DNA of 64,000 nt from an uncultured Ignavibacteriales bacterium (GTDB taxonomy: Bacteria > Zixibacteria > MSB-5A5 > GN15 > JAAZOE01), in contig CAZJWR010000002.1 of NCBI GenBank assembly GCA_964549765.1, positions 30,691-94,690 of the forward strand. Direction: 5' to 3'. Below, piece by piece: positions 2,461-31,563 of this stretch. The number at the start of each line of letters is the position of its first letter. Position 1 is the stretch's first letter. The position numbers and the translations under genes are program-made. A model generated the notes under the pieces. It saw only the letters and a program-made list of their open reading frames with translations. It searched no databases and had not been told where the DNA came from.

Positions 2461-2640
2461 CCTCTTTTTCGGAAGCCGCCGGCCGCGCCGACTCTATCTC
2501 TATAAACCGCTGGCCGGCAGGGCAGTTCCCCCCCAAATTCCCGATCGTGTCCGGATTGAATTTTGCGAATTTCCCCGCCCGCCTCGAAAACGCGGATCAG
2601 CCCGGGACGACCGATGCCGCCGCCCACCGGCAGGTTCTTC

Positions 2641-2669
2641 TTGACATATCCGGCGGGGACGATTATTAT
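2641..2669 (+). promoter_or_regulatory. near-consensus sigma70 promoter for the oxidoreductase/Cys-peptide operon
   Basis: TTGACA (2641-2646), a 17-nt spacer, then TATTAT (2664-2669). It lies about 80 nt upstream of the ATG at 2751. Confidence 0.55.
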
Positions 2670-2750
2670 GTTACTTCAGGACTGGGGATTCAGGCATCAT
2701 TCGGCATCACCGGCATCAGTCCCGGACACATATCTACAAGGAGAGACCTC

Positions 2751-3335
2751 ATGGCTACGCGTGCGTTCTCCGTCAAGGAAGGCGTCATGTACATCCTGGT
2801 CGGCGGGGTGGTTTTGTTTTTCGCCGTGTTTCTCGGCATCCGCACCGGCTTTGCCATTCGCGGCGGCGGCGGCGAACCCGGCGAACTCACCCCGGAAAAC
2901 CTGCCCAATCGAACGATATTGAAACTGGGCGATCCCTTTCCGGCGCTTCCGGTCAAATCGCCCGACGCCAATACCCTGCAAATCTCCGACATCACCGGCG
3001 GAAAACCGACCGTCTTCGCCTTCGTGCTGCCCGGATGCGATCCGTGCAAAAACATGCTGACCAAGTGGCGGGCGAACGGCATCGTCAACGATGACAAAGG
3101 CGTTCATATCGTGTTATTGGCCGCCAGTCAGCCCGATGAACTAAATGCGGGACCCCTCGCGGAATTCGAAGGCGATTATCCGATCTATTTTGTCGATATG
3201 GAGCAGCTGGGCGAGCAGTGCGGTATTTCCAGCTTCCCCAGCGTCGTGGGCGTCAAAGCGGATGAAACGATCGGCTTTGTCGCCAACGCCTACGTTTATC
3301 GTCTCGATACGGCATTTTTTAAAAAATATCTGTAA
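2751..3335 (+). CDS. membrane-anchored TlpA/ResA-like thiol:disulfide oxidoreductase (CDPC motif)
   Basis: It lies inside ORF 2547..3335. The start was set at ATG 2751 because AAGGAGAG lies upstream and the promoter lies inside the longer ORF. There is one N-terminal TM helix (YILVGGVVLFFAVFLGIRTGFAI). The thioredoxin fold has VLPGCDPCK and a cis-Pro loop SSFPSVVG. Confidence 0.75.
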   Translation: MATRAFSVKEGVMYILVGGVVLFFAVFLGIRTGFAIRGGGGEPGELTPENLPNRTILKLGDPFPALPVKSPDANTLQISDITGGKPTVFAFVLPGCDPCKNMLTKWRANGIVNDDKGVHIVLLAASQPDELNAGPLAEFEGDYPIYFVDMEQLGEQCGISSFPSVVGVKADETIGFVANAYVYRLDTAFFKKYL

Positions 3336-3415
3336 AGGAGAAGCCCCTTTTCCATTTTCGGAATTGGATAAGGGCGATCCGAATTCAAACCATTCATCAA
3401 GGAGGATGTTGTCCC

Positions 3416-3697
3416 ATGAAGAAACTCACCATCTATGGAAGCCTGTTTCTCTTCGTATTCGGGCTCTCGGCCGGCCTGGTGGTTACCATGCCCGGCCAGG
3501 CACAGGCCTATCAGCTGTGTACGCTTGAATGCGTGGGCCAGTATTATTGCAATACCCACAAAACCGGGGAGTTGTGCACCAGCCCGAAAATGCCCTATTA
3601 CAAGTATTGGGTCGCGACATGCGTTGGGGGACCGCTCAATTGCCCGCCCACTCACTGGGTCGGTTGTTGCCCCAAACTTATTCCGATTGAACCGTAA
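3416..3697 (+). CDS. small Sec-exported cysteine-rich peptide (8 Cys in a 62-aa predicted mature part), family unknown
   Basis: 93 aa with AGGAGG 9 nt upstream. The signal peptide is MKKLTIYGSLFLFVFGLSAGLVVTMPGQAQA|YQ. The mature part is YQLCTLECVGQYYCNTHKTGELCTSPKMPYYKYWVATCVGGPLNCPPTHWVGCCPKLIPIEP. Confidence 0.7.
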   Translation: MKKLTIYGSLFLFVFGLSAGLVVTMPGQAQAYQLCTLECVGQYYCNTHKTGELCTSPKMPYYKYWVATCVGGPLNCPPTHWVGCCPKLIPIEP

Positions 3698-3775
3698 TTA
3701 CGCGATATAAATCGTCGCCCATCCGGGCCCTTCCGGGTGCGCGGCGTAATTGTCACGGCACGGGGAGGCATCGAT

Positions 3776-4348
3776 ATGGCATCGACGAAATTTCCCATCA
3801 AAAGGGCCGTCATGATCATTGTTGTCGGCGGGATCATTCTGTTTCTGGCTGTATTTGTCGGCATCCAGATCGGCTATGCCCTGAAAGGCGGCGACCGGAC
3901 ATCTGCGACGGAAGCGATATCGTCCGGCACGCCGTCGCCCGGCGACCCAGTTCCCTCGCTGAAACTGTTTACCGAAGACGGGCGGCCGTCGAACCTGCGC
4001 GAAATCGTGTCGGGGGGAGATGCGCTCATCGCTTTCACTATGTCCGGATGCAGCTCCTGCTCGGATCTATTGTCCGGATGGAAAGCAGACGGTATCCTTG
4101 ACCGGCGGGAAGGAAGGCGAATATTCGTCGTCGTCGCGACGCCGCCCGGCGATTTTGACGCCGGGGAGCTGGCCCCTTATGCTTCATACTGTCCCATGTA
4201 TTTCTGCGATAACGCCGACCTTTATGTAGATCTGGATGTACATGGTTTGCCGGCGGTCCTCGGTGTGACCGGGGACGGCGCCGTGAGTTTTTTCAGCGAT
4301 GACGCCGAATCAATTCGCGATACGACCTATCTCGTGCGTCATCGGTAA
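3776..4348 (+). CDS. membrane-anchored TlpA/ResA-like thiol:disulfide oxidoreductase, paralog (CSSC motif)
   Basis: The start at ATG 3776 has GGGGAGG 7 nt upstream. The TM anchor IVVGGIILFLAVFVGIQIGYALKGG is nearly superimposable on that of 2751..3335. The fold has TMSGCSSCS and a cis-Pro loop HGLPAVLGV. Confidence 0.75.
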   Translation: MASTKFPIKRAVMIIVVGGIILFLAVFVGIQIGYALKGGDRTSATEAISSGTPSPGDPVPSLKLFTEDGRPSNLREIVSGGDALIAFTMSGCSSCSDLLSGWKADGILDRREGRRIFVVVATPPGDFDAGELAPYASYCPMYFCDNADLYVDLDVHGLPAVLGVTGDGAVSFFSDDAESIRDTTYLVRHR

Positions 4349-4430
4349 TCGATCTGCCTGCCGGACATTCGGCCGACAGGGGAGGGGATGTAATCTCAAT
4401 CGTATCCAATCCATGGAAGGAGGTGATTTT

Positions 4431-4736
4431 ATGAAGAAAGCGATCATTCTTGCCTCGACCTTTCTGGTCGTGTTCGGCCTGACGCTCGGCATCGTTCTGT
4501 CCCTGAACGAGGGCGCCAATGCCCTCAATCTGTGTGTCTGGGAATGTGCATTCAAGACCACATGGACAACCTATACCGGCCCGGAATGCCCCGGAACCTG
4601 TCCTTCGAGTATGATCTATAAAATTACCCGAAGGTCCACCTGTGTGTCCGGCCCGCTCAACTGTCCGTATGTCAATGAAGTCATCGGTTGTTGGGACGGC
4701 GTCGATCAATTCGGCTGCCTCTTGGGACGGCATTAA
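4431..4736 (+). CDS. small Sec-exported cysteine-rich peptide, paralog (8 Cys in a 70-aa predicted mature part)
   Basis: The start at ATG 4431 has GGAAGGAGGTG upstream. The signal peptide is MKKAIILASTFLVVFGLTLGIVLSLNEGANA|LN. The mature part is LNLCVWECAF...STCVSGPLNCPYVNEVIGCWDGVDQFGCLLGRH. It shares LCxxEC, TCVxGPLNCP and GC blocks with 3416..3697. Confidence 0.7.
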   Translation: MKKAIILASTFLVVFGLTLGIVLSLNEGANALNLCVWECAFKTTWTTYTGPECPGTCPSSMIYKITRRSTCVSGPLNCPYVNEVIGCWDGVDQFGCLLGRH

Positions 4737-4750
4737 TTTTTTATCTGTCT

Positions 4751-4784
4751 CGGCCCGGACTTCGTCCGGGCCGATCATTTTGGG
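4751..4784 (+). terminator. hairpin terminator after the second Cys-peptide gene
   Basis: The stem CGGCCCGGA-CTTCG-TCCGGGCCG is followed by ATCATTTTGG. The T tract is interrupted. Confidence 0.5.
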
Positions 4785-4874: not shown

Positions 4875-4901
4875 TAAATAGCTTAACATATTTGCCGATT
4901 T
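4875..4901 (+). promoter_or_regulatory. sigma28 (FliA)-type promoter upstream of motAB
   Basis: TAAA (4875-4878), 15 nt, then GCCGATTT (4894-4901). This matches the TAAA-N15-GCCGATAA class consensus and lies about 50 nt upstream of the motA ATG. Confidence 0.6.
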
Positions 4902-4951: not shown

Positions 4952-5809
4952 ATGCTTACCATAGTCGGCTTTATCGTCGTCGCCGGAGCCGTTATCGGTG
5001 GATTCATCATGGAGGGAGGCCAACTCATGGTCCTCTTCCAGCCCGCAGAATTTCTTATCATCGGCGGCGCGGCTCTCGGCGCACTTCTCGTGGCTACTCC
5101 CATACCCGTTCTCAAGGAACTGATCCGGCAGATCAAGTCCTCGTTCGGCGGCGGATACGGTAAAGAGGCATTTACGGGGCAGATGGTCATGCTGTATGAG
5201 ATTTTCAACATCGCCCGGCGCGAGGGCCTGGTCGGGCTCGAATCGCATATCGAGAAACCGGAAGAATCCGAAGTCATCCGGCGCTATCCGGCCTTCCTGC
5301 AAAACCATCATGCCGTCAGTTTCATGTCCGACACCATGCGATTGATCATCACCGGGTCGGTTCAGCCCCATGAGCTCGAAGCCCTGCTCGACGTCGATCT
5401 CGAAACTCATCATGAGGAAGTCGATACGCCCCCGACGATGCTGTCCAACATCGCCGATTCCCTCCCGGGTCTCGGTATCGTCGCGGCCGTTCTCGGCGTT
5501 GTCATCACCATGGGCGCCATCGGCGGCCCGCCCGAGGAGATCGGGCACAAGGTCGGCGCGGCGTTGGTCGGGACGTTCCTGGGCGTGCTGCTTTGCTACG
5601 GTTTCGTCGGCCCGCTGGCCAACAACATCCGCACCAGCAACCGATCCGACACGACCTATATGCATTGTCTCAAACAATGCCTGCTGGCGTTCTGCAAGGG
5701 TTTTCCGCCGTCGATCGCCGTCGAATACGGCCGCAGATCGATTCCGACCGAGGTGCGCCCCTCGTTTATCGAGGTCGAGGATGCCTGCAAACTGACGCGC
5801 AAGGGGTAA
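4952..5809 (+). CDS. motA: flagellar motor stator protein MotA
   Basis: MLTIVGFIVVAGAVIGGFIMEGGQLMVLFQPAEFLIIGGAALGALLV... has a typical MotA N-terminus and four TM segments. The start at 4952 was chosen by homology to MotA N-termini. Confidence 0.9.
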   Translation: MLTIVGFIVVAGAVIGGFIMEGGQLMVLFQPAEFLIIGGAALGALLVATPIPVLKELIRQIKSSFGGGYGKEAFTGQMVMLYEIFNIARREGLVGLESHIEKPEESEVIRRYPAFLQNHHAVSFMSDTMRLIITGSVQPHELEALLDVDLETHHEEVDTPPTMLSNIADSLPGLGIVAAVLGVVITMGAIGGPPEEIGHKVGAALVGTFLGVLLCYGFVGPLANNIRTSNRSDTTYMHCLKQCLLAFCKGFPPSIAVEYGRRSIPTEVRPSFIEVEDACKLTRKG

Positions 5810-5812
5810 TCG

Positions 5813-6664
5813 ATGGCCGACGAGCAGAAAAAAGAGCAACCGATAATCGTCGTCAAAAAGGTGGGCAAACACGGCGGTCATCACGGCGGCGCCTGGAAGG
5901 TCGCCTATGCCGATTTCGTCACCGCCATGATGGCCTTCTTTCTCGTCATGTGGCTGGTCACCCAGTCGAATGTAATCCGGCAGGCCGTCCAATCGTATTT
6001 TCTCGATCCGGTGCATCACGGCAAGAATTTCAAAGCCAGTGTCCTGAAAGGCGGCGCCGGCGCGCTCAAGGGCGGCGCTATCGGCACCGGGGCCGGTGAT
6101 GAAATGACGCAGCAGGAACAGTTGAAAAAGGATATGGAGGCGCTCGGCAATCATATCAAGGAAGTGATGGATGGCATCCCCGGTCTCGATATTCTCCGCA
6201 ACGCCATCGAAATCGAAATGACCCAGGAAGGCTTGCAGATCCAACTTATCGAGGGCAGCGACAACATCACATTCTTCAAATCCGGCCGCGCCATGCTCAG
6301 CACCAAGGCCGAATTGATCCTTAAGACAATCGCCATGGAACTGCGCAAAGTTCCCAATATGATCGTGATCGAGGGGCACACCGACGCCCAGGACCATTCC
6401 TTTGCCGATAATTATTCCAATTGGGAGCTTTCGACCGACCGGGCCAACGCCGCCCGGCGGGCCATGGTCGAGGGTGGGCTCGATCCCCGGCGCGTCTACA
6501 ATGTGCGCGGATACGCCGACAAGAAGCTGCGGATTCCGGAAAATCCCTATGATCCGCGCAACCGGCGTATTACAATTCTTGTGCTTAATCGTATACCCTG
6601 TGAGGAGACGCCGCAGGATAGTTACGACACACCAATTATGATGTCTAAAAACGACGGGCAGTAG
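5813..6664 (+). CDS. motB: flagellar motor protein MotB (OmpA-like C-terminal domain)
   Basis: GGAWKVAYADFVTAMMAFFLVMWL is the plug/TM region containing the conserved Asp. The C-terminal part is OmpA-like: IEGHTD...NWELSTDRANAARR. Confidence 0.9.
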   Translation: MADEQKKEQPIIVVKKVGKHGGHHGGAWKVAYADFVTAMMAFFLVMWLVTQSNVIRQAVQSYFLDPVHHGKNFKASVLKGGAGALKGGAIGTGAGDEMTQQEQLKKDMEALGNHIKEVMDGIPGLDILRNAIEIEMTQEGLQIQLIEGSDNITFFKSGRAMLSTKAELILKTIAMELRKVPNMIVIEGHTDAQDHSFADNYSNWELSTDRANAARRAMVEGGLDPRRVYNVRGYADKKLRIPENPYDPRNRRITILVLNRIPCEETPQDSYDTPIMMSKNDGQ

Positions 6665-7775: not shown

Positions 7776-8861
7776 TCACCTCGGTAGTATGGCGTCGAGA
7801 AGTTCATCATCCCAGGGATGACCCTCGGCCAGCATGAGACGGAGCTTGATGAAATCGACTTCCCGATTTCCCTTGGGGCCTTCGTTGAATGCCCGGAAAC
7901 CGGCTTTGGCCTCGGTCATCATATTCAGACCCAGCCAGTCGCGGTTGGACTGCTGGTTTCTGTCCCAATGCTCCAGTTTTTTCTTCCGCACGCTATTCAG
8001 GGTTTTGTTCACACAGTCGGGCATCAAGTACAGGAATTTGGTCGTCAGAGCGTTGACGGCATTGTCCAGCGGCGTCATGTCGATTTCACCGGTTGCCATC
8101 ATCTCTTTGCCCTTCTTATATTCATCACCCGGTTTTCTTCTGCCGTAGACCGTATCACCGGATTCATCCAGCCAGCGGTCGGTGACCACCAGCGGATTAC
8201 GGATGAATTTGCCGTCGACTTTCAGAACCGGGATGGCCTCGGTTATGAGTCCGTACGCTTTGGCCTCATACGCCGACCACATATCGCAGAGGGTGCAGCT
8301 TTGAAAGGCGCGTTCGATTCCGACAAACAGGTGCAGAAAGTCGGTGCTGCCGCCGTCGGGGGCGCTGCCGTGCCTGGGCCCCGCCTGGCCGAAAACTGCC
8401 AGGTCGCTGGCGACGGCCAGGTCGCAGGCCATGCCGATTTCCTGCCCGCCGGCGATCCGCATCCCGTTGACGCGGCAGATGACCGGCTTGTCGCACATGA
8501 GGATCGACGTGATCATATCGTTGAACAGCCGCATATATTGTTTGTATTCCAGGGGCCGCCCGGAATAATATTCGGCATACTCCTTGGTGTTGCCGCCGGT
8601 GCAGAAGGCTTTATCGCCTACGGCGGTGAAGACGACGGCCACGACGGAGCGGTCGTTGGAGGCTTTGCGAAAAGCCAGGATCACTTCCTTGACGGCGTTG
8701 GTCGTGTAGGAGTTATACTGCTTGGGATTGTTAAGAAAAATCCAGGCGTTGTGCAGGCCCTTCACGGGATTGCCGCCGGCATCGAGGCAGGGGCGCAGTT
8801 CGTAGATGATTTCCTTGAAATCGATATCGACCAGATCGTGGCTGACTAAATGGTGACTCAT
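7776..8861 (-). CDS. oah: 6-oxocyclohex-1-ene-1-carbonyl-CoA hydrolase (ring-cleaving crotonase, Oah/BamA type)
   Basis: A long crotonase-superfamily protein of about 361 aa (AFCTGGN...VNGMRIAGGQEIGMACD), matching the size and architecture of Oah/BamA. It is flanked by a Zn-ADH (had) and a short crotonase (dch). The start at 8861 has GAGGAG 9 nt upstream. Confidence 0.7.
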   Translation of the reverse strand: MSHHLVSHDLVDIDFKEIIYELRPCLDAGGNPVKGLHNAWIFLNNPKQYNSYTTNAVKEVILAFRKASNDRSVVAVVFTAVGDKAFCTGGNTKEYAEYYSGRPLEYKQYMRLFNDMITSILMCDKPVICRVNGMRIAGGQEIGMACDLAVASDLAVFGQAGPRHGSAPDGGSTDFLHLFVGIERAFQSCTLCDMWSAYEAKAYGLITEAIPVLKVDGKFIRNPLVVTDRWLDESGDTVYGRRKPGDEYKKGKEMMATGEIDMTPLDNAVNALTTKFLYLMPDCVNKTLNSVRKKKLEHWDRNQQSNRDWLGLNMMTEAKAGFRAFNEGPKGNREVDFIKLRLMLAEGHPWDDELLDAILPR

Positions 8862-12623: not shown

Positions 12624-14714
12624 TCATCCTGCCGTCTTGACTTTCACGCGGGCGTCAACCACTTCCACCCCTTTGCCCTTGTCGAAAGCGAAGGCGGGAT
12701 TGAGATCCATCTCGTCGATTTCCGGGAAGTCCGAACACAACTGCGAGAGCCGCATCAGCGTTTCCGTCAGGGCGTCGATATCGGCCGGTTTCGCGCCCCG
12801 TGTGCCCTCGAGTATGGGATAACCTTTGATGCCGTGAATCATGCCCAAAGCGTCCTGTTGAGAAAGCGGCGCGAGGCGAAATTGCACGTCCTTCAGGGTT
12901 TCGACGAACACGCCGCCCAGACCGAACATCAGCATCGGCGCCAGACCGGGGTTGGCCTTGGCGCCCATGATCACTTCCCGGCCGCCGGTGCGGTATTCCT
13001 GAAGGATGAATCCGGGCTTGAATTCCTTGAACGCCGCCGACATCTCGTCGAACGCTTTGAGAAGTGCAGCTTCATTGGGAAGATCGAGATAGACCCCGCC
13101 GGCATCCGTCTTATGAACGATCGCTTCGGCATCCACCTTGAGGACCAGCGGATAGGTGAGTTTCGCGGCTTCTTTCTTCAGCTCGTCTTTGATCTTTATT
13201 CTCACGCTTTTCACGGCCGGTATGCCATAGCATTTCAGGAGTTCGAACACATCGGCTTGGGGGAGAAAAACATCTTTGCCGGAATACTGTCCAATGATTT
13301 CTTGAGAGCGTTTCTTATCGGATTCGAATGTTTGGTAGGCGGGCGCTTCCCGCTGCGCGATGCGGCCGTACTTGATCATCGCCGCCAGCGCTCGGGAGGC
13401 CGATTCGGGGTAATCGAAAACGGGGATGCCGCTCTGTCGGACCAGCCGGACGACCTCGCCGAATTTTTCTTCGATCGTCAGGATGATGCAGACGATCGGC
13501 TTGTCGGCGGCGGCGCCGATTTCGCCGAGTTTGCGGGCGACTGCTTCGCAGTCGACAAACGGCGGCGTCACAAAATTGAGAATCAGCGAATCGATGTTGG
13601 GGTCTTTCAGAAGCGCCTCGACCGCGCCGCCATATTCCTTGGCGCCGGCGGTGGCGATGACGTCGACCGGATTGGAAACGATCGCTTCGGAGAAGAGGAG
13701 TTCCCCGAGGGTCTTTCCCGTCTGCGGGCTCAGTTCGGCCAGTTTCAGGCCGGCGGCGATGCATTCATCGACGGCGATAATGGCCGGGCCGCCGGTGTTG
13801 GTGACGATGACGACCTTATCGGATTTGGGGACGGGCTGGGTCGAAAAGGCGATGGCGGCTTCTATCATCTCCTGCTGGGTATCGAAACGAAGCACGCCGC
13901 CCTTTTCGAAAATCGCGTTGGCCAGCGTATCCTGCTCGATCATCGAGCCGGTATGCGAGGCCACGGCCCGGACGCCTTCCGAGGTTTTCCCGGCTTTCAG
14001 CGTCAGGATCGGTTTCTTTTTTGTCACCCGCTTTGCCACTTCGAGAAAGCCGGCGGGATCCGAGAGAGTTTCGATATGGGTCATGATGACTTTGGCATCG
14101 TCGTCTTGACCGAAATAATCGATGATTTCATTCATGCTCACATCGGCCTCGTTCCCGAAGCTGGCGTACATGCGTATGCCCATGCCGATGCGATACAACT
14201 GCAATTTCAACGTTTCGCCAACGCCGCCGCTCTGGGCGACGATAGAAATATTGCCGGGAGTCATGGGTACGAATGTGAAATTCGCATAGACCGATACGGC
14301 CGGATCGGAATTTTGTATGCCTTGCGAGTTTGGCCCATAAATCCGCATGCCGTATTTGTGCGCGATATCGACGATCTGTTTTTCGAGTTTCCGTCCCTCC
14401 TCGCCGACCTCTTTGAATCCGGCGGTGTGGACGATGGCGTACTTAACGCCTTTCTTGCCGCATTCTTCGAGGACGGAGGGGACGAGCGTGTTCTTGATCG
14501 AAATATTGACGAGGTCGATCTCATCGGGGACATCGTTCACAGAGGCGTAGGTCTTGAAGCTTTTGATGGATTTCGACTTCGGATTGATGGGGTAGATGGG
14601 TCCTTTGAAATTATGATCAACGAGATTCTGGATGACAATATGCCCTATACTCAGAGGATTATTGGAAGCGCCGATAATCGCCACCGATCGGGGCTTGAAT
14701 AAGCCGTCAAGCAT
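12624..14714 (-). CDS. ADP-forming (NDP-forming) acyl-CoA synthetase, fused alpha/beta type
   Basis: The 696-aa protein begins LFKPRSVAIIGASNNP...IYPINPK (CoA-binding domain). This is followed by ligase-CoA and ATP-grasp regions. The start overlaps the upstream activase stop by 8 nt. Confidence 0.8.
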   Translation of the reverse strand: MLDGLFKPRSVAIIGASNNPLSIGHIVIQNLVDHNFKGPIYPINPKSKSIKSFKTYASVNDVPDEIDLVNISIKNTLVPSVLEECGKKGVKYAIVHTAGFKEVGEEGRKLEKQIVDIAHKYGMRIYGPNSQGIQNSDPAVSVYANFTFVPMTPGNISIVAQSGGVGETLKLQLYRIGMGIRMYASFGNEADVSMNEIIDYFGQDDDAKVIMTHIETLSDPAGFLEVAKRVTKKKPILTLKAGKTSEGVRAVASHTGSMIEQDTLANAIFEKGGVLRFDTQQEMIEAAIAFSTQPVPKSDKVVIVTNTGGPAIIAVDECIAAGLKLAELSPQTGKTLGELLFSEAIVSNPVDVIATAGAKEYGGAVEALLKDPNIDSLILNFVTPPFVDCEAVARKLGEIGAAADKPIVCIILTIEEKFGEVVRLVRQSGIPVFDYPESASRALAAMIKYGRIAQREAPAYQTFESDKKRSQEIIGQYSGKDVFLPQADVFELLKCYGIPAVKSVRIKIKDELKKEAAKLTYPLVLKVDAEAIVHKTDAGGVYLDLPNEAALLKAFDEMSAAFKEFKPGFILQEYRTGGREVIMGAKANPGLAPMLMFGLGGVFVETLKDVQFRLAPLSQQDALGMIHGIKGYPILEGTRGAKPADIDALTETLMRLSQLCSDFPEIDEMDLNPAFAFDKGKGVEVVDARVKVKTAG

Positions 14715-15492
14715 CTTGACCTCCTTGATGTTTTAATGCATACAGGGCCGCTCCAAGAGCGCCCGTCAGCTGCGGGAGAGGGGGAACGAATATTCTGCTG
14801 CTCGTCTTTTCCTCGAACATGGTGACAAGATATGGATTGTATGCCACGACTCCCCCGCTCATTACTATCGAACCGTTCATCGAGTCCATTTCGAGGACCC
14901 GCTTGATGATCGAATTAAACAGCCCCTTGATGATATCGGCCACGTCGACGCCTTCGCGAATTTTAGCCAGAATTTCCGTTCCGGTAAATACCGTGCAATA
15001 GCTGCCCAGTTCGATGTTGTTTTTCGCGCTCCCGGCCATGTCGTTCAACCGCCCCAGGTCTATCCGCAGCCGGTACGCCATTTCTTCCAGAAACGCTCCG
15101 GTTCCGGCGGCGCATTTGCGGTTCATTTTGAATCCGGTTCGTTTGCCGTCGTCGTCAATCTTGATGATTTTATTATCCTGCCCGCCGATATCGACCAGAG
15201 TATGGGCCTGCGGAAAATGATGGAAACTTCCCTCGGCGTGGCAACTGATTTCCGTCCTTGTTTCGTCGGCGTACGAGACATTGCGCCGGCCGTATCCGGT
15301 TGTGACGACAACAAATGTGTCATCGTCGCGGCATCCGGCCTGTTCGCGCGCGGCAGCATAGGCGCGGTCGGCGGCGGCGCTGAAATCGGCCGCGGAATCG
15401 TTTACCGCATGGCCGCGCACATCCTTTTTTTCATCGATAATAATCGCCTTGGTGGTCGAGGCGCCAATATCGATACCGACAAAGTACTTCAT
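14707..15492 (-). CDS. BcrAD/BadFG-type ATPase; activase of a 2-hydroxyacyl-CoA dehydratase/DCCP-type enzyme
   Basis: GIDIGASTTKAIII, VDIGGQDNK and NRKCAAGTGAFLE are ASKHA-fold motifs, with the bridging-cluster Cys as in HgdC-like activators. Confidence 0.8.
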   Translation of the reverse strand: MKYFVGIDIGASTTKAIIIDEKKDVRGHAVNDSAADFSAAADRAYAAAREQAGCRDDDTFVVVTTGYGRRNVSYADETRTEISCHAEGSFHHFPQAHTLVDIGGQDNKIIKIDDDGKRTGFKMNRKCAAGTGAFLEEMAYRLRIDLGRLNDMAGSAKNNIELGSYCTVFTGTEILAKIREGVDVADIIKGLFNSIIKRVLEMDSMNGSIVMSGGVVAYNPYLVTMFEEKTSSRIFVPPLPQLTGALGAALYALKHQGGQDA

Positions 15493-15527
15493 TCAGTTTG
15501 TCAGGTCCCACACGTAGAGAAGAATTA

Positions 15528-16772
15528 TTACCGGGCCTCCAGTTGCTCAATGAAGGCTTCTATATTCGTTTTGGCCTGCTCTTCGGAGTAGCAGCGCAGG
15601 TCGTTGAGATCGCCGTTTATGGTCAGGGCGGGAATACCCAGCCGTTTTTCGAGCCGTTCGGGCATGCCGTAGCGGTTGTTTGAATTATTCGGGCAGGTTT
15701 TGGAATCGTGGAACAGGATCCCGTCCAGTTTGAAACGGCGAACCATATCTTCGATATATTGCTCTTTGAAATTCTCGTCTCGCACAATAAAAATTTCGGT
15801 ATACGCCCGGGCCATGCTCAGGAAAGGATCGGCCGGGTCGAACGCCTCAAAAATCCAGCTGTTGCAATAGGTCGAGGTTATCACGGCCGCTTTGAGGCCG
15901 ATGAAAAATTCGGACAGGTCGCGTAGTTTGCCCCAGATCGGCATGCCTTCCCAATAGAGGCGATACTTCTCACCTTCGACCGCCCCCTCTTTGTTGGCGA
16001 CCCGTTCTTCCAGCTCTTTCAGCAACAACTCATAATAGTCGACGGCCGTCTGCGATCCGCGCAGGATGACGGCGGGGCCCATATGAATGGTGGCGTCGAA
16101 AAAGCTCATGGGAGCTGGCGAGGCCATATTCGTCTCAAGGACTTTTTTCCAAAGGTCGCTGCATTTCTTGGACATGGCCAGCGATTCCCGGAATTTGTCG
16201 ATGTCGAATTTATTGCCCGAAATTTTTACCAGAGGCGGGATGAGGTCTTCGATCTGCCGGACGATACCGGCCAGGATGTCGTCGGTGATGTGCCCGATGT
16301 TGCGGAAGGTGGAGATGCCCATGATCGGAACCTGCAATTCGCGGGCATACCATGACAGCCAGTCCTGCACGTCTCGGCATTGATTGGTGTTGAACATGAG
16401 CACATCCGGTTTCGGGACGCCCTCGATGCCCTTGTAAGCAAGCGACAGCGGCGTTTGCTTCTTGAGGAACGATCCGATGTCGCTGGTCAGGTAGGAACAA
16501 ATGTCCGGCGAATACCCGATGGCATTGGTTGCCGGGATGCAGTCGGTGGCCATCCGTGTGGCCCCCAGCATGGCGCCGTGGTTTTCCGGATAGTAAACGA
16601 GAAACCCCAGGCTCAACAGAAGCTCCGCCGGTCCGACGCTGGTGCACCAGGCGATTTTTTTCGTTCCCTCTCGGGCCGCCGCATCCATCTCATAGAAATA
16701 ATCGGCCATGATTTTCTTCATTTGGCCGGTGGCCTGGATTTTCTTGATGGTGGCTTTGTTGTCAGCGCTCAT
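15528..16772 (-). CDS. 2-hydroxyacyl-CoA dehydratase / benzoyl-CoA reductase B/C-family protein, single subunit (possibly double-cubane-cluster type)
   Basis: 414 aa. ...IAWCTSVGPAELLLSLGF..YYPENH... and the C-terminal ...FHDSKTCPNNSN... are typical of the HgdA/B-BcrB/C fold. Only one such subunit is present, followed directly by one activase. Confidence 0.65.
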   Translation of the reverse strand: MSADNKATIKKIQATGQMKKIMADYFYEMDAAAREGTKKIAWCTSVGPAELLLSLGFLVYYPENHGAMLGATRMATDCIPATNAIGYSPDICSYLTSDIGSFLKKQTPLSLAYKGIEGVPKPDVLMFNTNQCRDVQDWLSWYARELQVPIMGISTFRNIGHITDDILAGIVRQIEDLIPPLVKISGNKFDIDKFRESLAMSKKCSDLWKKVLETNMASPAPMSFFDATIHMGPAVILRGSQTAVDYYELLLKELEERVANKEGAVEGEKYRLYWEGMPIWGKLRDLSEFFIGLKAAVITSTYCNSWIFEAFDPADPFLSMARAYTEIFIVRDENFKEQYIEDMVRRFKLDGILFHDSKTCPNNSNNRYGMPERLEKRLGIPALTINGDLNDLRCYSEEQAKTNIEAFIEQLEAR

Positions 16773-16822: not shown

Positions 16823-18901
16823 CTATACATTCATCGTTTTGGAGCAGGCCGCTCCAATCACACCGCCCCGGCACAACGGGGAACTCATAAATCCAGCAGA
16901 ATGCTTGGCCTGTACGCCAAGGGCATCCGCCAAAGGCGCGCCGCACGATTCCCGGATGCAATCCATGATTGCTTTCCGCGCCGATTCGACAGCGGGATTA
17001 CCGGAATCGGGCAGGCCGGTTTCGTCCGGGATTCCGCTCAGCGCCTTCTCGACGATTTTTCTTTGTGGCGGGGCACTCCCGTCGCCGGATGCGATTTTCC
17101 AGACCATCTGAATGGCGTCATCCATCGGCCCGGCATAATCGACCAGCCAGCCGACGGCGTCGGCGGCCGGGATCGCTTTGCCGGTCAGCAGCAGGTTGAT
17201 AATTTTCGGCCAGCCTTCGGGACGGGATTTCCTAAACGACCAATGGCATCCCTCCATGCCGGGGATAACCGGTAGAGTGACTTCGGGCATGCCGAGGACG
17301 CTCGCATTTAATGCAACGAGGTAATGGCAATGCATCATCAGCTCCAGCATGCCGCCCAGGCAGCGTTTGCCGTTAATGAATCCCACCGAGGTCTTGAAAT
17401 CGTTCGCCAGCCGCCGGGCCGTCTGCGACCACGCCGTCGATATCCGCAGGCCCTGGTCACTGTCCTCCAGCGCCGGGAAAAATTCGCTGGTGTCGGCGCC
17501 GACCAATTGCGACGACAGATGGAAATCGCCGGTGACGATGACGCGGTCGATTTTTTCATTCACCAGCCAGTCAATGGCCCGGTTCAATTCGGCGTCGACG
17601 TCGCTATTGTAGCTTTCGCGGCCAAGCGTAATAATGCCGACCTTACCGTCGTGCTCGGCGTTGACATACAATTGCTGCCATTCGGCATTTTCGATCTTTC
17701 CGAAGACATCCGGATTCCAGGGGGATTCGGCGGCCTCCGGATGGAGTTTATGATATTCTTCGACGCGCTTGATGGCCTTATCGGGCCCGATTTCGCGGAT
17801 GTAGGCAAGGATGCCCTTGCGGAACTGGGCGCACAATTCGCCGATGGCGTTGATGTGCGACAGGTGCGAACGGTTTTCCTGAAGCATCAGGCCGGTCATT
17901 TGGATGGTTGGACCTGCAACCCAGTTCAGGAATTCGTCCTCGTCGTCCATGGTCCAATCGACCACGGGGCGGAAATGATTCATGGGATACCAGTTCTGCC
18001 CGCTTGTTTTGCGTTCCACCAGGTCTGCCGTCGGCGTGAACAGGTCGCCGTATTTTTCGCTCAGGTGATGCAGGCACGACCAGGTCAGGAAATTGGCGCC
18101 GGCGGCGCCGATGGCGTCATGCGCCCGGAACGGGTTCGGGCCGAGCGTCTTGCGTACGAATTTGTCGATTTTCCAGAACGGCATGTTCGAGGCGCGATGA
18201 TACCGCAGTGCGGCCAGAGTCAGGCCGCAGAAGAGCACATCGAGGACGAACGACCAATAATCGCTGACCGGCATGGGGATCAACCCTACCGACCAGAGAA
18301 GCTGTGTGATCGGCGAAGTGTTCGACTCGACAATTTCGAAGACCTTATTTATCTGATGCGGAAAGGCCGGATGCGCGATTCCGACGCCCAGTTCCGAGCT
18401 GGGAAATCCCGACGTGACGGAACGAATTTCCGCCTTGGGAAAGGCCTCACGGAAGACACCGTAATGGGCCTTTTTGATATCGAGGATTTCCGGGATCGCT
18501 TCGAGCAGAAAGCGGGGCTGCAGCCGCTTCAATTCCGACGGCAGGCGGCGGCCGTCGTAATTCAGCCTGATGACATTGCCCATGATTTCGTCGGCGCGCT
18601 GTTGGCCGAACGAACCCCTGAGGCCCTGATATTGCATGCCGAGGCCGTCCGGGGCGCCGGGGAAATCGAGGCCGACGATCGGGACGTTATAGGGGAGAAG
18701 CCGTGAACCGAACTGCATGGTTTTGCCGGCGCCGACGATGCCGTTGGCTCCGGAAATGACCATCGCGCCGCGTTCGCCCGCCGGGCCGAAAATGTGATCC
18801 ACCAGATTTTCCGCCGTGACGGGGAGGCGGCCGTTTTGAAAGATCTCCAGGACGTGTCCCAGACCGAGAGTATCCGTGGTTGGCTGTCTTAGTGCTTTCA
18901 T
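16823..18901 (-). CDS. fusion protein: N-terminal 3-hydroxyacyl-CoA dehydrogenase-like domain + C-terminal enoyl-CoA hydratase (crotonase) domain
   Basis: The N-terminal part has VISGANGIVGAGKT (Rossmann), ...EAIPEILDIKK... and NPFRAHDAIG. The C-terminal part has ITLGRESYNS...GKRCLGGMLELMMHC (crotonase). The start overlaps the thiolase stop (ATGA). Confidence 0.65.
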   Translation of the reverse strand: MKALRQPTTDTLGLGHVLEIFQNGRLPVTAENLVDHIFGPAGERGAMVISGANGIVGAGKTMQFGSRLLPYNVPIVGLDFPGAPDGLGMQYQGLRGSFGQQRADEIMGNVIRLNYDGRRLPSELKRLQPRFLLEAIPEILDIKKAHYGVFREAFPKAEIRSVTSGFPSSELGVGIAHPAFPHQINKVFEIVESNTSPITQLLWSVGLIPMPVSDYWSFVLDVLFCGLTLAALRYHRASNMPFWKIDKFVRKTLGPNPFRAHDAIGAAGANFLTWSCLHHLSEKYGDLFTPTADLVERKTSGQNWYPMNHFRPVVDWTMDDEDEFLNWVAGPTIQMTGLMLQENRSHLSHINAIGELCAQFRKGILAYIREIGPDKAIKRVEEYHKLHPEAAESPWNPDVFGKIENAEWQQLYVNAEHDGKVGIITLGRESYNSDVDAELNRAIDWLVNEKIDRVIVTGDFHLSSQLVGADTSEFFPALEDSDQGLRISTAWSQTARRLANDFKTSVGFINGKRCLGGMLELMMHCHYLVALNASVLGMPEVTLPVIPGMEGCHWSFRKSRPEGWPKIINLLLTGKAIPAADAVGWLVDYAGPMDDAIQMVWKIASGDGSAPPQRKIVEKALSGIPDETGLPDSGNPAVESARKAIMDCIRESCGAPLADALGVQAKHSAGFMSSPLCRGGVIGAACSKTMNV

Positions 18902-27102: not shown

Positions 27103-27384
27103 CTACCACGAATGGGAAATCGCGCCGGGGGTGCAGGCGACGACACACGGCAACGGGGGCCGGTCGGCCGTCGGCTTGCACGGGCCGCAGTCATATTTGA
27201 CTTTCTTGCGGTGCTCTTCCTTGATAGCGGCGACTTCGTCATCATAATCGTCGACGATAATTTCGAACATGCCCACCGGGCAGGCGCCAACGCACGGGTG
27301 ATCGCCGCATTCAAGGCAGCGATCAGTGTCTATCGTGATGAAAAAGTTGCCGCTGCCGTCCATATATCCGTAATTGGCCTTCAC
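27103..27384 (-). CDS. ferredoxin-like 2x[4Fe-4S]-type protein with atypical Cys spacing (BzdM/Fdx-like by position)
   Basis: 93 aa if the GTG at 27384 (GTGA overlap with the upstream stop) is used; an alternative ATG lies at 27363. The Cys motifs are CLECGDHPCVGACP and CGPCKP...CVVACTPGA. It lies directly downstream of the four reductase subunits. Confidence 0.6.
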   Translation of the reverse strand: MKANYGYMDGSGNFFITIDTDRCLECGDHPCVGACPVGMFEIIVDDYDDEVAAIKEEHRKKVKYDCGPCKPTADRPPLPCVVACTPGAISHSW

Positions 27385-28268
27385 TGGGCGACCTTCTTCC
27401 GTTGTTTCTCGACCAGCGCTTTCGCAAAAAGGGCGGCACCGAGCGCTCCGGCGATCTGGGTGTCGTATTGGGATTTCAGCGCCGTAAGATCCAGTTCCTT
27501 TTCGAGGCGGGTCACCACGCCTGCGTTTTTGGCGATGCCGCCGGTGATGGCGAATTCTTTTTGGACGCCGATGCGTTCCAGAAGCGACACGACCCGGTGC
27601 GCCATGGCCGAGCAGTAGGCCGCCAGGACGCGCTTTTTCGACCAGCCCTCGCGCAGCAGGGACGACGCTTCGGATTTGGCGAAAACGACACAGGTCGACG
27701 ACACCGGCGGCGGTTCTTCGTCCACGTCCAGCGACATCTCGCCGACGTCTTCGATGGATACCGACAGCAGGTCGGCGAACACTTCCATGCCCCGTCCGGT
27801 GCCGGCGGCGCATTTGTCGTTCATCAGGAAGTTGGTGACTTTGCCCTTCTCATCGCACAGGATTGCCTTGCAGTCTTGTCCGCCCATATCCAGGATCGTC
27901 CGCACCGATGACCCGTACATGAAATTGCCGCCCCGGGCGTGGCAGGCGATTTCGGTGATGGCGCGGTCGGCAAAGGGGACGTTGACGCGGCCGTAGCCGG
28001 TGCCCACCGTATAATGAATATCGTCCAGAGTCAGGCCGGTGTTTTCCATGGCCCATGTGATCGCCTTGCGGGCGCTGTCCGGGCTGTCGGAGCCCGTGCG
28101 CATATTCGAATACGCGAACAGCTTGCCATCGACCAGAATCACCGCCTGGGAACTGACCGATCCGACGTCAACACCGGCCGAGATGGTCTCGGCTCCTTTC
28201 GGATCCATGTTCTTGTCGCGCCAGTTATATTCTTTCCACCGCCAGTATTCTTTTACTTGTTCCGTCAT
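27381..28268 (-). CDS. bzdQ: benzoyl-CoA reductase ATPase subunit, short alpha type (BzdQ-like / BcrA family)
   Basis: The 295-aa BcrAD/BadFG ATPase has GVDVGSVSSQAVI, LDMGGQDCK and NDKCAAGTGRGMEV. Its size and fourth position match the Bzd (Azoarcus-type) arrangement. Confidence 0.65.
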   Translation of the reverse strand: MTEQVKEYWRWKEYNWRDKNMDPKGAETISAGVDVGSVSSQAVILVDGKLFAYSNMRTGSDSPDSARKAITWAMENTGLTLDDIHYTVGTGYGRVNVPFADRAITEIACHARGGNFMYGSSVRTILDMGGQDCKAILCDEKGKVTNFLMNDKCAAGTGRGMEVFADLLSVSIEDVGEMSLDVDEEPPPVSSTCVVFAKSEASSLLREGWSKKRVLAAYCSAMAHRVVSLLERIGVQKEFAITGGIAKNAGVVTRLEKELDLTALKSQYDTQIAGALGAALFAKALVEKQRKKVAQ

Positions 28269-29041
28269 GACTGCACCCTTTCGCTCGCGACCACGGCCGC
28301 TCCCAACGCGCCCACGAATTCCGCATCTTTCGGAACGCTTACTTCCATTTCCAATGCCCGGCTGAGGGCGTCGACGAATCCGGGATTGTACGACACCCCG
28401 CCCACCAGAGCCACGTCCTTATTGATTCCCACCCGCCGGACCATGGATACGATGCGGCTCGAGATGGCATCGTGCACGGCCCGGGCGATATCCTGCTTCG
28501 GGGTTTTGGCGTGCACCAGCGAGACGACTTCGCTTTCGGCGAACACCGCGCACTGGGCGTTCATGGGCGTCGTCTTGTCCGACTGGAGCGATAATTTTCC
28601 GAATTCCTCGAGTGAGACTTCCAGAGCGCGCGCCATCGCTTCGGCAAATGCGCCGGCGCCGGCGGCGCATTTTTCGTTGACGGCAAAATCGACGACCTTG
28701 CCGGTCTCTTCCAGTTTTATGCCGCGGCCTTCCTCCGCCCCGACGTCAATTACCGTCCGGACGTTTTTCATCAGATGATTGATTCCCTTGGCAGCGGCGC
28801 CCACGTCGGTGATATCCGAATTGATATTGGGAGCGGATTTTCGTCCGGCCCCGGTCGACGTGATATGCTTGATATCGGCGACTCCGATCCCCGATTCTTT
28901 GGCCGCCTGTGCCAGACATTCCGAGGCCGACTCGGTGGAGTCAAAACCGGTTGCGACCTTCGCCTTGCCGGCGATTTCCCCGTCTTTCAGGATGACCGCC
29001 TTGATATATTTGGCCCCCATGTCTATTCCGGCTGTAATCAT
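28265..29041 (-). CDS. bzdP: benzoyl-CoA reductase ATPase subunit (BzdP-like / BcrD family)
   Basis: The start at 29041 (MITAGIDMGAKYIK) has GGAGG 7 nt upstream. It has IDVGAEEGR and NEKCAAGAGAFAE. It overlaps the next gene by 4 nt. Confidence 0.65.
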   Translation of the reverse strand: MITAGIDMGAKYIKAVILKDGEIAGKAKVATGFDSTESASECLAQAAKESGIGVADIKHITSTGAGRKSAPNINSDITDVGAAAKGINHLMKNVRTVIDVGAEEGRGIKLEETGKVVDFAVNEKCAAGAGAFAEAMARALEVSLEEFGKLSLQSDKTTPMNAQCAVFAESEVVSLVHAKTPKQDIARAVHDAISSRIVSMVRRVGINKDVALVGGVSYNPGFVDALSRALEMEVSVPKDAEFVGALGAAVVASERVQS

Positions 29042-29098
29042 TATGCTTCCTCCGCTCACTAAATGTCTATTCCAAACGCGCTATCGTCGATCGCTTCG

Positions 29099-30415
29099 TT
29101 ACGGGGCAGCCGTGGATGTGTTCTGCATCGTGACGCCCAATGTTTCCATGAAAGAATCGATCCGCACCATAACCCGTTTCTCATCGAATTCCCGCTCGTC
29201 TCCCATGTTGCCTTCGAAGGTCATAACCGGCACGCCGGCTTTGGCGATACCGAGGCGATTTTCCATGATGCCGCAGGAAAGTCCCTCGCATCCCCGGTTC
29301 AGGTGAAGCATGACCCCGTCCAGTTGCCATTGCTTGACGATCTGAAGCATCATGTCGGTCTTGAGGTTGGGATCGTAAAAATGCTGCCATTCGGGCTTGG
29401 AGAGATTCCAATCGGCCAATACTCGCAGGGCCTGATCGCGAGTGGTGATCTTTTCGCCCTTCTGCATGGGCGTCGTCCTGGGGCCCCAACTGCCGTCGGG
29501 CTTGGTTTCCCAGATGCCGATCAGGCCGAAGGTATACAGCGATCCGACCGAGATCGCGCCGTATTTTTCCAGATACCGGAACACCTTGAGAAATCCCCAC
29601 GGCGGCTGCGTGTCGGACATAAGCCGGCACGTTTCGTTGGGCACGGCGGCGATATGGTTCTCGACCCGGTATTTGACTTCGTCGCGGAGTTCCTCGTAGA
29701 AATCGGCGATTTCTTTGGAGTGCTTGGCGAGAGTCCCATGCACGTATAGCGAATACATGGTCTTTTCGTCCAGCGGCGCCGGCTTGGCCATATTCAGGCA
29801 ACAGACTTCCGCCCAGGTGGACGTCGACCGCGTTTCGTTCTCGACGGCCTCGATCAGGAGTTCATCCTGATACTTGCGGCCGGTGACCTTTTCGAGCCAT
29901 TCGATCGATTCGTGCATCTGATTGACGACAAACATCAGTCGATTCTCGTCGATATCCTTGTAGGGGCCGACCGAGACATCGATGCAGAAATAGGGGATCT
30001 TCTTGTATTCGGCGACATGCTGATACCATTTCCCGTGGCTGCAGCAGATGTGATCCTGAAAGCAGAAATCGGGATCGGGGTAATCGCCGCCGAAGGCGTA
30101 CTTGCCGAGGTACATCGATCCCCAGTAGTTGCGCATATAGCTGCACAGATCGCGAGCCCACCCTTTGGCTTCGGCCGCTTCCAGACATTCCAGAGACAGC
30201 TTGCGGTCAAACGCGATCGAGGCCGCGTACGGCTCGCCGGTGACGTTGTATACATCGCGGCCCAAACCCGCCGGAATGGCGTCGAACGACCACGCCCCGC
30301 CGGTCCAGCGGATACCGCCTTTTTCGCGCGCCTGCTGGTAGTCTTTGTAATACTTGAGGCGCAGCTCTTTGGCTTTCGGCCAGCATTTCAACGGTTCGGT
30401 TTTATATTCAGCCAT
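29099..30415 (-). CDS. bzdO: benzoyl-CoA reductase large catalytic-module subunit (BzdO-like / BcrB family)
   Basis: The start at 30415 ([19 protein letters not shown]...) has GAGGAG 4 nt upstream. It is a 438-aa HgdB/BcrB-fold protein paired with a 374-aa partner and two ATPases. Confidence 0.65.
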
Positions 30416-30438
30416 GATACTCCTCTTCATCAAATAGC

Positions 30439-31563
30439 CTAAAACAGCTCTTCCACGCCCAGCATTTCCAAAAACGCCTCCACCCGTATCCGCATCGGGC
30501 CCAGCGGCACGGTCACGTCGAATTCGAGAAATAGGGTCGGAAAATTATTGCCGTTCAGATATTCCTTCAGCGGCACCATGTCGCATTCATGGGGATCGCA
30601 GAATTTCTGCTGGATCAGGATGACGCCGGCGACGTTGAAATCCTTGGCTAGTTGCAGGATATGCGGAAACCGGGTCCGTTCCTCCCAGTCCTTGGTCGGG
30701 CACGGCGGGCGGTCGATATACCGGTTGGAGAGATCTTTCAGGATATCGCCGGAAAACTGCGTCGAATTCCAAAAATAGCGGGACCCGGTGCAATGGTCGT
30801 CGACGACGACCGTGGCGCCGACCGATTCCACCATATTGATAAAGGCCGTGTCGTCGTCCTCGGACCCGACGATCATGAGACGCGCGCCGGTGTCGCGGTC
30901 GAGCTTGCGCGATTTCAATCCCAGTAGGATACGCTTCAATTCGGCATTGTGATCTTTTTTGTCGACGAAAAACGACGACGCCACCATGACCATCGCCTCG
31001 AGGCCGGTCAGGGGCGGATTGTCCCCCTTGCGAAGATCGTACACTTCATGCATCAGGCGGCGGTTTTCGTTGTAGAGTTCGGCCGCTTCCTGCATTGACG
31101 TGTCGGAGATCGTCTTCCCGGTCCATTTCTCGATCGCGTCTTTGAATTTGACCAGCTCTCCCGCGAAGTAGGAGCGGGCGTGTTCCGTCTGCACCTTGTT
31201 CGGCATGTAAAGATAAAACGAGAAATCCTCGGGCACGTGGTTTCGCCACGAGGTGAAGGCCTGCCGCAGATGCAGGCAGGACTGGGAAAGCACGATACCC
31301 TTCATGTAGTCGTAGCGGCCCTTCAGCCCCTGTGCCAGGACGTCCCGGCAGAAGGGACAAAACATCCCGAAAATATGCGGTTCGGTGACATCCTGCGGTT
31401 CGTGAGCGCCGAGCATCCGCACCGGCAGCATGCCGGCGGCATAGAGCAGTTCCTCGGGCACATAACTGCAGAAGCAGCCGACGACCTGACCGTCATTTTT
31501 CGCGAGCCAGTCGCGGGCGTAGTCATGACGGTTCTTGTACCAGTCAAAAAACTTCTCGAACAT
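30439..31563 (-). CDS. bzdN: benzoyl-CoA reductase subunit (BzdN-like / BcrC family)
   Basis: The 374-aa protein has ...[23 protein letters not shown]... and ...KFCDPHECD..., typical of the HgdA/BcrC fold. It is the first gene of the N-O-P-Q order. Confidence 0.65.

Follow-up and report, generated by a model that had tools for sequence, protein, structure and literature searches.

A TlpA-like membrane-anchored oxidoreductase and the variable array of cysteine-rich miniprotein genes that it heads in Zixibacteria

The general idea of a dedicated disulfide enzyme that is encoded beside its cysteine-rich clients is already known. In PedC-type (pediocin-like) loci, in the BlpG locus of Streptococcus thermophilus, and in the sublancin locus with its BdbA and BdbB proteins, an oxidoreductase is encoded beside small exported cysteine-containing peptides. 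These loci are Gram-positive, and they join cationic peptides that carry double-glycine leaders and one or two disulfides to ABC exporters or peptidases and to immunity genes. In another setting, the thioredoxin-fold protein MauD is required for the six-disulfide small subunit of methylamine dehydrogenase, and a recent discussion treats MauD and MauE together as a general route for oxidative folding in phyla rich in anaerobes (bioRxiv 10.64898/2026.03.05.709764). A comparable pairing occurs in a 64,000-nucleotide stretch of DNA (hereafter the window; contig CAZJWR010000002.1, assembly GCA_964549765.1) from an uncultured bacterium placed by GTDB in the Zixibacteria. Here, genes for two membrane-anchored, thioredoxin-fold proteins, T1 and T2, alternate with genes for two small, exported, cysteine-rich proteins, P1 and P2. 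T and P are two previously undescribed protein families. Our favored explanation, to which we give about an even chance, is that the genes form a self-contained operon for making disulfide-rich extracytoplasmic miniproteins together with their own folding catalyst.

The four genes lie on the forward strand in the order T1-P1-T2-P2, between a promoter at 2641-2669 and a hairpin at 4750-4774. This layout had been proposed in the original prediction, and the coordinates, the ribosome-binding sites, and the conserved signals agree with it, except that position 2641 belongs to the promoter and is not the start of a gene. For comparison, 23 related loci (given L numbers below) from about 12 lineages were fetched and scanned with profiles for T, P, and MotA/MotB; the locus searches used subsets of the P and T alignments. 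The promoter, TTGACA-17-TATTAT on the forward strand, is sigma-70-like and agrees with the consensus at 11 of 12 positions, and alignment reveals that both of its hexamers are kept in L013, L011, and L015. T1 (2751..3335), P1 (3416..3697), T2 (3776..4348), and P2 (4431..4736) are each preceded by a strong Shine-Dalgarno sequence (AAGGAG at 2738-2743, AAGGAGGA at 3399-3406, GGGGAGG at 3762-3768, and GGAAGGAGGTGA at 4415-4426, respectively). The operon, whose content is T and P genes only, is closed on the same strand by the intrinsic-terminator-like hairpin, an 11-bp stem with 9 G-C pairs. This hairpin is kept in L013, L011, and L005, and a different hairpin occupies the same place in other loci. 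A longer, GTG-initiated open reading frame (2547-3335) was considered for T1 and rejected, as the orthologs begin at MATRAF.

P and T are real genes under moderate constraint by purifying selection. The ratio of nonsynonymous to synonymous substitution rates (dN/dS) is 0.16-0.45 among P orthologs and paralogs and 0.2-0.3 for T, compared with 0.06-0.08 for the neighboring MotA and MotB. Against their own orthologs, P1 yields values of 0.18-0.23 and P2 values of 0.22-0.24. Every pairwise dN/dS is below 0.55, and there is no sign of positive selection. The small reading frames on which the original prediction depended are, by this measure, conserved as proteins. Overlapping reading frames on the minus strand were rejected as genes on account of their low G+C content at third codon positions. 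A separate observation concerns the 5′ ends of the P genes. In several pairs (L008 7771-8043 versus 8382-8654; L018 1116-1397 versus 1541-1834; P1 of L013 versus that of L005), the synonymous rate dS is lower in the part encoding the signal peptide than in the part encoding the mature protein, with values of 0.16 versus 0.32 in one pair and 0.31 versus saturation in another. The counts are small, and the pattern suggests that the 5′ ends either undergo gene conversion or are constrained at the nucleotide level.

T1 (194 amino acids, active site GCDPC) and T2 (190 amino acids, active site GCSSC) are paralogs with 32% identity over their full length (E 1e-38). Their N-terminal membrane anchors are closely alike (VGGVVLFFAVFLGIRTGFAIRGG in T1 and VGGIILFLAVFVGIQIGYALKGG in T2). 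An AlphaFold2 model of T1, built from 23 family members, has a mean predicted local distance difference test score (pLDDT) of 83.5 and shows a thioredoxin fold preceded by an N-terminal helix that spans residues 8-36. Basic residues precede this helix, and the catalytic domain would consequently lie outside the cytoplasm. Foldseek returns ResA, pneumococcal Etrx2, CcmG, and TlpA as structural neighbors of the model (E ~1e-7, probability 1.00), with TM-scores by target of 0.65-0.73. Across the family, G95, C96, and C99 are invariant, and P163, the cis-proline position that reads FPS in T1 and LPA in T2, is nearly so. The earlier description of T as TlpA-like proteins with an N-terminal anchor is borne out by this predicted fold.

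Despite this structural kinship, sequence models of described families recognize T poorly. T1 falls below the Pfam cutoffs for AhpC-TSA (21.9 versus 26 bits), Redoxin (18.2 versus 26.6 bits), and Thioredoxin_2 (16.6 versus 27 bits), and T2 falls below them as well, at 12 bits. The ResA model NF002854 gives T1 22.2 bits against a cutoff of 170, and the MauD model TIGR02661 gives T1 12.4 and T2 11.2 bits against a cutoff of 188.6. Conversely, a search with the T profile finds 22 clusters, all with E < 1e-54, and its matches occur only at T-P loci. Judged by its modeled fold, T belongs, as a divergent and membrane-anchored protein, to the ResA/TlpA structural class but to no curated family. The family splits into a clade with CDPC, CEPC, or CGPC active sites and a long-branched CxSC clade of 9 members (CSSC, CKSC, CNSC, CTSC, CISC, and CHSC), which is fast-evolving and includes T2. 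No genes for cytochrome maturation, ccdA, resBC, mau, Sco, Cox, or Msr were seen among the scanned window genes or in the sequence flanking the arrays of the fetched loci, and neither Dsb, CcdA, VKOR, nor MauE turned up there. T is neither an ordinary cytochrome-maturation protein nor a Sco protein, because its scores are far below the ResA and MauD cutoffs and because no ccdA, resBC, or mau genes lie nearby.

P1 (93 amino acids, about 62 of them in the mature protein after AQA|Y) and P2 (101 amino acids, about 70 mature after ANA|L) share 45% identity over 80 amino acids (E 9e-16), and each has exactly 8 cysteines after its signal peptide. These details, together with the T anchors, the contrast between CDPC and CSSC, and the cis-proline, had all been read correctly in the original prediction. 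A word-seeded search of 5.8 billion proteins gave 19 clusters of P relatives, and an exhaustive profile search of 1.84 billion representatives gave 40 matches, about 36 of which are genuine, being 72-118 amino acids long and of the same architecture. Four candidates (P0036, P0046, P0055, and P0060) were rejected as translated repetitive DNA or Ig-repeat proteins. Members begin with a basic N-terminus, a long hydrophobic stretch that carries a near-invariant F and a G-x3-G motif, and an invariant A-x-A. The mature domain of about 65 residues that follows has six invariant cysteines and the motifs TGPxC, PYY, and GGPLNCP. Among 2,082 open reading frames in the window and the fetched loci, the signal-peptide motif is confined to P genes. 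Other identities considered for P were set aside: heme binding for want of a CxxCH motif, a lipoprotein for want of a lipobox cysteine, and a type IV pilin because the N-terminus is unlike one.

The cysteines themselves are informative. Their number after the signal peptide is even in 61 of 66 P sequences (8 in 46 and 10 in 15), and those outside the invariant six come and go in pairs. Specifically, the second cysteine of 'GCC', present in 36 sequences, is always accompanied by the 'YYC' cysteine (36 with both, 0 with 'GCC' alone), and the 'PGxC' cysteine is accompanied by a C-terminal 'GC' cysteine in 14 of 15 sequences. This covariation fits what is expected if all cysteines are paired, with the fourth bridge placed differently in P1, which belongs to the 'YYC...GCC' subtype, and P2, which belongs to the 'PGxC...C-terminal GC' subtype. 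On this basis, P1 is predicted to form its fourth pair between YYC and GCC, and P2 between PGxC and the C-terminal GC. A longer and divergent P-like reading frame with 11 cysteines and the same signal peptide is present in L006 (10843-11235), where it reaches the end of the contig with its stop codon unseen. It suggests that the P family extends to other cysteine frameworks.

No described family accounts for P. Searches against Pfam, NCBIfam, and PADLOC give no family match beyond a weak, composition-driven one to DUF1272 (best E 5e-4, 5 of 19 members), and the P profile finds only vicilin CX3C peptides (E 0.06) among PDB sequences. An AlphaFold2 model of P has a three-stranded sheet, with a pLDDT of 79 and a predicted template modeling score (pTM) of 0.47. 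Compared with the PDB, where a model of moderate confidence makes for a weak test, it retrieves nothing significant, the best neighbors being the laterosporulin bacteriocins (E 1.5-4.8, probability <=0.10), and compared with the viral folds in BFVD it also retrieves nothing significant. A full-text literature search found nothing on the family. Thus, the view that P are Sec-type, cysteine-rich peptides outside described families holds against Pfam, NCBIfam, PDB, and BFVD. Mature P proteins are mostly acidic, with a median net charge of -3; charges of -2 or lower are found in 46 of 66 sequences, and a charge of +2 is reached by only one.

The related loci reveal how T and P genes are arranged more generally. 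The T-P-T-P order of the window recurs in L005 and L013/L014, whereas L007 and L015 carry a single T-P pair and L022 a partial T followed by one P. Among longer series, the L008 group has T-P-P-P-T-P-P, L006 has T with at least three P genes behind it, and L018 has T with 4 P genes. The largest array (L016 6001-10099; Candidatus Zixiibacteriota CSMAG_807, DAOUTW010000008.1) consists of one T, 8 tandem and strongly diverged P genes, and then motAB. At the other extreme, the sole P of L011 (8663-8943; L012 has the same sequence) is a pseudogene interrupted in frame by TAA at the seventh codon and by a TGA further on, in the middle of the gene, and the T gene, the terminator, and motAB beside it are intact. 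In general, then, a single T heads an array whose P genes vary in number from 1 to 8. The 1:1 pairing of oxidoreductase and peptide that had been expected is lineage-specific, since other lineages carry one T with up to 8 P genes.

What does hold throughout is that T comes first. T heads the P array in 11 of 11 lineages with upstream sequence, as anticipated if relatives of P are systematically adjacent to TlpA-like genes. A P-based scan of metagenome contigs, together with look-ups of P-carrying contigs, found no P away from a T array, and no intact T without a P or P remnant was found at the loci examined. Among labeled records, the T and P families occur only in Zixibacteria. This taxonomic range is based on two contigs labeled Zixibacteria or Zixiibacteriota and on the neighboring MotA, which at the other loci is close to that of the window. 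A scan of species-representative genomes with strict patterns gave one T locus only. The locus occupies a stable chromosomal position, and none was found in phage, plasmid, or viral-contig collections.

Downstream of the array lie motA (4952-5809, + strand; Pfam MotA_N and MotA_ExbB) and motB (5813-6664, + strand; Pfam MotB_plug and OmpA). Between P2 and motA, and outside the T-P transcript, alignment identifies a sigma-28 (FliA)-type promoter, TAAA-N15-GCCGATTT (4875..4901, + strand), which we take to fit the sigma-28 consensus. No other block of the spacer between P and motA is as well conserved as this element in all 8 aligned loci (it lies at about 9110-9140 in L011), and in every one of them a terminator and the separate sigma-28-type promoter stand between P and motA. 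Hence, motAB seems to form an independent unit within the flagellar regulon. The motA-motB pair follows the array in 10 of the 11 lineages with enough downstream sequence, and its products are 89-94% identical between lineages. The exception is L005, where T-P-T-P and the terminator are retained but motA is absent from the adjacent 560 bp. On either outer side, before T and after motB, the gene content changes from lineage to lineage. In the window, the upstream neighbors are tRNA-Val and tRNA-Met genes on the minus strand, adjoined by a gene (1346-2059, - strand) for a CT398-like coiled-coil and C4 zinc-ribbon protein (Pfam Zn_ribbon_9/CT398). The array is also preceded by this gene in L013/L014; lineages in which urocanase (hutU) adjoins the array upstream do not have it there. 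As had been noted from the window, no ABC exporter, protease, maturase, or recognizable immunity gene lies near its operon, and there is no ABC exporter in any fetched locus. LptE and Omp85 genes close by in related loci indicate an outer-membrane host.

Three direct copies of GGCATCA (2693-2699, 2703-2709, and 2712-2718, + strand) are found in the 5′ untranslated region of T1, spaced 10 and 9 nucleotides apart between the -10 hexamer and the Shine-Dalgarno sequence. By repeat count this is the sole such cluster in the window, against a chance expectation of 0.1, and a cluster occurs at the same place in L001, L013, L014, and L015. The RNA of this region has no significant fold (z = +1.04) and matches no Rfam family. 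The cluster might serve as an operator, or as an RNA element bound by a protein. Around the start of T2 (3766-3784) lies a related pair, GGCATCG...ATGGCATCG.

Elsewhere in the window, BcrAD/BadFG-type ATPases and HGD-D-type subunits of the benzoyl-CoA reductase / 2-hydroxyacyl-CoA dehydratase type are encoded at 14710-16772 and 27384-31563; genes for a TetR regulator and for a tripartite molybdenum hydroxylase (32592-36459) are close to these clusters. Their presence suggests that aromatic compounds or amino acids are degraded anaerobically. SecDF and subunits of pyruvate:ferredoxin oxidoreductase are also encoded, and the window is, to judge from its gene content, part of the chromosome of an anaerobe. 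Three reading frames have no Pfam family at E <= 1e-5: 16826-18901 (- strand, 692 amino acids), 38550-39932 (+ strand, 461 amino acids), and 51670-52209 (+ strand, 180 amino acids). Their third-position G+C is gene-like in the 692- and 180-amino-acid frames and lower (0.60) in the other.

How might such an operon work? We hypothesize that T is anchored in the inner membrane with its ResA/TlpA-fold thioredoxin domain in the periplasm, and that P, once translocated by Sec, forms four or five disulfides from its 8 cysteines (10 in some relatives) to give a beta-rich domain of about 60-70 residues. T would introduce or reshuffle these disulfides while the signal peptide still tethers the precursor in the membrane. 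The signal peptide of P, which is unusually long and conserved, would be recognized by the equally conserved transmembrane helix of T, and recognition through membrane segments would let one T serve several diverged P paralogs. After duplication of the unit in the window, T2 with its CSSC site may have specialized towards the P2 subtype, whose fourth disulfide would sit elsewhere than that of P1. The mature proteins are most likely soluble periplasmic or released miniproteins of a binding or inhibitor type, rather than membrane-lytic antimicrobials. We favor such a role over that of a cationic bacteriocin because P is anionic, the host has an outer membrane, and the locus has no exporter or immunity gene.

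The proposal of recognition within the membrane is made because the membrane segments are the best-conserved parts of both proteins. Mean identity within T is 62% in the transmembrane segment versus 42% in the thioredoxin domain, and between the two T clades it is 48% versus 27%. Likewise, mean identity within P is 43% in the signal peptide versus 27% at mature non-cysteine positions. In each segment there is also a small-residue G-x3-G motif, formed by G16 and G20 in P and by G29 and G33 in T. These patterns suggest that T recognizes P inside the membrane, and the duplication of T and P together is further support for the dedicated-catalyst explanation. Several points weigh on the other side. 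The low-complexity, hydrophobic composition of membrane segments inflates percent identity, redox direction is not readable from CDPC or CSSC, and the P model, with the scores given above, is only moderately confident. All loci are orthologous and confined to one phylum, such that the co-occurrence of T and P reflects one origin followed by retention; for this reason, adjacency is not independent evidence of a functional link. Moreover, motAB is nearly as tightly linked to the array as T is to P, and the intact T beside a lone P pseudogene in L011 and L012 may have another client.

These considerations matter when other explanations are weighed. One such explanation, which we consider unlikely, holds that T is a general or otherwise-dedicated periplasmic oxidoreductase, that its adjacency to P is inherited synteny, and that P is oxidized by general machinery. 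TlpA-like proteins usually serve in the maturation of respiratory enzymes, the association arose once, T stays intact beside the P pseudogene, and up to 8 dissimilar P genes can stand behind a single T, all of which suits a generalist. A generalist does not, however, readily explain why T and P were duplicated as a unit with an altered active site in the duplicate T, why T always stands nearest the promoter in a transcription unit shared with P, why the T profile matches its 22 clusters at these loci only, or why the fetched flanks and scanned window genes hold no cytochrome-maturation, Sco, Cox, or Msr genes. A role in motility is quite improbable in our judgment, even though motA-motB follows the array in 10 of 11 lineages, the differing outer flanks make T-P-motAB behave as a conserved block, and P and the periplasmic domain of MotB are both outside the cytoplasm. 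Under this scenario the target of P, once folded by T, would be the MotAB stator or the basal body of the flagellum, with parallels in MotC and its chaperone MotE and in the disulfide-dependent MotX/MotY and FlgI. Against it, the conserved terminator and the sigma-28-type promoter of motAB split the two units, the T-P promoter being sigma-70-type, and L005 has T-P-T-P without a nearby motA. In addition, a protein present in 1-8 copies with about 27% identity at mature non-cysteine positions is ill-suited as a partner of MotA and MotB, given how strongly those are conserved, and P has no homology to known flagellar proteins in family and PDB sequence searches.

The remaining alternatives accept T as a catalyst for P and differ in what P does. 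If P proteins were Sec-dependent, disulfide-stabilized, bacteriocin-like antagonists, then T would be a dedicated oxidase that perhaps also protects the producer, comparable to the thioredoxin-like accessory proteins of pediocin-type, Blp, and sublancin loci. The locus includes a thiol-disulfide oxidoreductase, and the small exported peptides are encoded by diverged tandem genes that share a conserved leader, number from 1 to 8, and include recent duplicates as well as one pseudogene; these features resemble what might be expected of such antagonists, and laterosporulins are the closest fold neighbors of P. Yet that fold match is not significant, mature P proteins are mostly anionic, there is no immunity gene, exporter, or route for crossing the outer membrane, positive selection is not indicated by the dN/dS values, and the locus is chromosomal and syntenic across the phylum. 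We therefore rate this possibility as low, and the antimicrobial role, one of those suggested in the original prediction, loses weight given the anionic peptides, the stable chromosomal locus, and its absence from the phage, plasmid, and viral-contig collections. Also conceivable, and of small probability as a distinct explanation, is a diversified array of periplasmic inhibitor or immunity-type miniproteins that T folds and that act, for example, against incoming lytic enzymes or toxins. The host has an outer membrane and the sole export signal of P is of the Sec type, the mature domains of P are small, rigid, anionic, and disulfide-rich, and the arrays show expansion and gene turnover; but neither by homology nor by fold does P match a known inhibitor family, and no cognate toxin genes lie nearby. 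This last scenario is compatible with the explanation that we favor, a dedicated catalyst folding binding or inhibitor-type miniproteins, and does not exclude it. A bolder form of that explanation, which we think doubtful, is a new maturation route in which signal peptides are recognized in the bilayer and one enzyme folds an expandable library of novel-fold miniproteins, perhaps modulators of MotAB or Sec-dependent antagonistic or inhibitory peptides.

Regardless of the precise role of P, the locus adds a disulfide-rich miniprotein of about 65 residues without detectable relatives, and a distinct TlpA-like clade, from a candidate phylum without cultured members. It also offers a concrete case of a putative dedicated disulfide catalyst in an anaerobe, a setting in which extracytoplasmic oxidative folding is poorly understood. 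If recognition through signal peptide and anchor proves true, it would be a new principle of client choice by periplasmic oxidoreductases. Miniprotein scaffolds with four or five disulfides, being stable, would be useful in peptide engineering. If T merely oxidizes P and the role of P is mundane, then the system is one more lineage-specific operon.

Comparison with described systems places the T-P locus most clearly. With ResA, TlpA, and CcmG, T shares its fold, a CxxC motif at the start of helix 1, a cis-proline loop, a single N-terminal anchor, and a domain outside the cytoplasm, and the CDPC of T1 followed by K resembles what we take to be the CEPCK of ResA. It differs in that sequence similarity is marginal (22 versus 170 bits for ResA and 21.9 versus 26 bits for AhpC-TSA), no cytochrome-maturation or Sco/Cox genes lie near T, the CxSC motif of the T2 clade is unusual, and the anchor is the most conserved part of the protein. 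MauD, which among these systems comes closest in function, is similar as a thioredoxin-fold CxxC protein dedicated to a multi-disulfide small periplasmic protein of its own cluster (bioRxiv 10.64898/2026.03.05.709764), and T matches it faintly. However, T scores only 12 bits against the MauD cutoff of 188.6, no MauE, mau genes, or tryptophylquinone enzyme are found nearby, and the putative clients of T are a multi-copy miniprotein family without sign of a cofactor. The bacteriocin loci described at the outset, despite their small exported cysteine peptides, differ from the T-P locus in that the latter has a Sec leader with A-x-A, no C39-peptidase ABC exporter and no immunity gene, anionic P proteins with four or five predicted disulfides, and an outer-membrane host.

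A final likeness, in logic only, is with the prochlorosin arrays, where paralogous precursors with a conserved leader and a diverged core are served by one neighboring enzyme. Prochlorosins acquire lanthionine rings in the cytoplasm under the guidance of a cytoplasmic recognition leader, whereas P would acquire disulfides outside the cytoplasm and carries a Sec signal, and the two systems share no homology. Set beside all of these systems, the T-P locus is distinguished by the architecture of its array, by the joint conservation of the signal peptide and the membrane anchor, and by the persistence of motAB as its neighbor.

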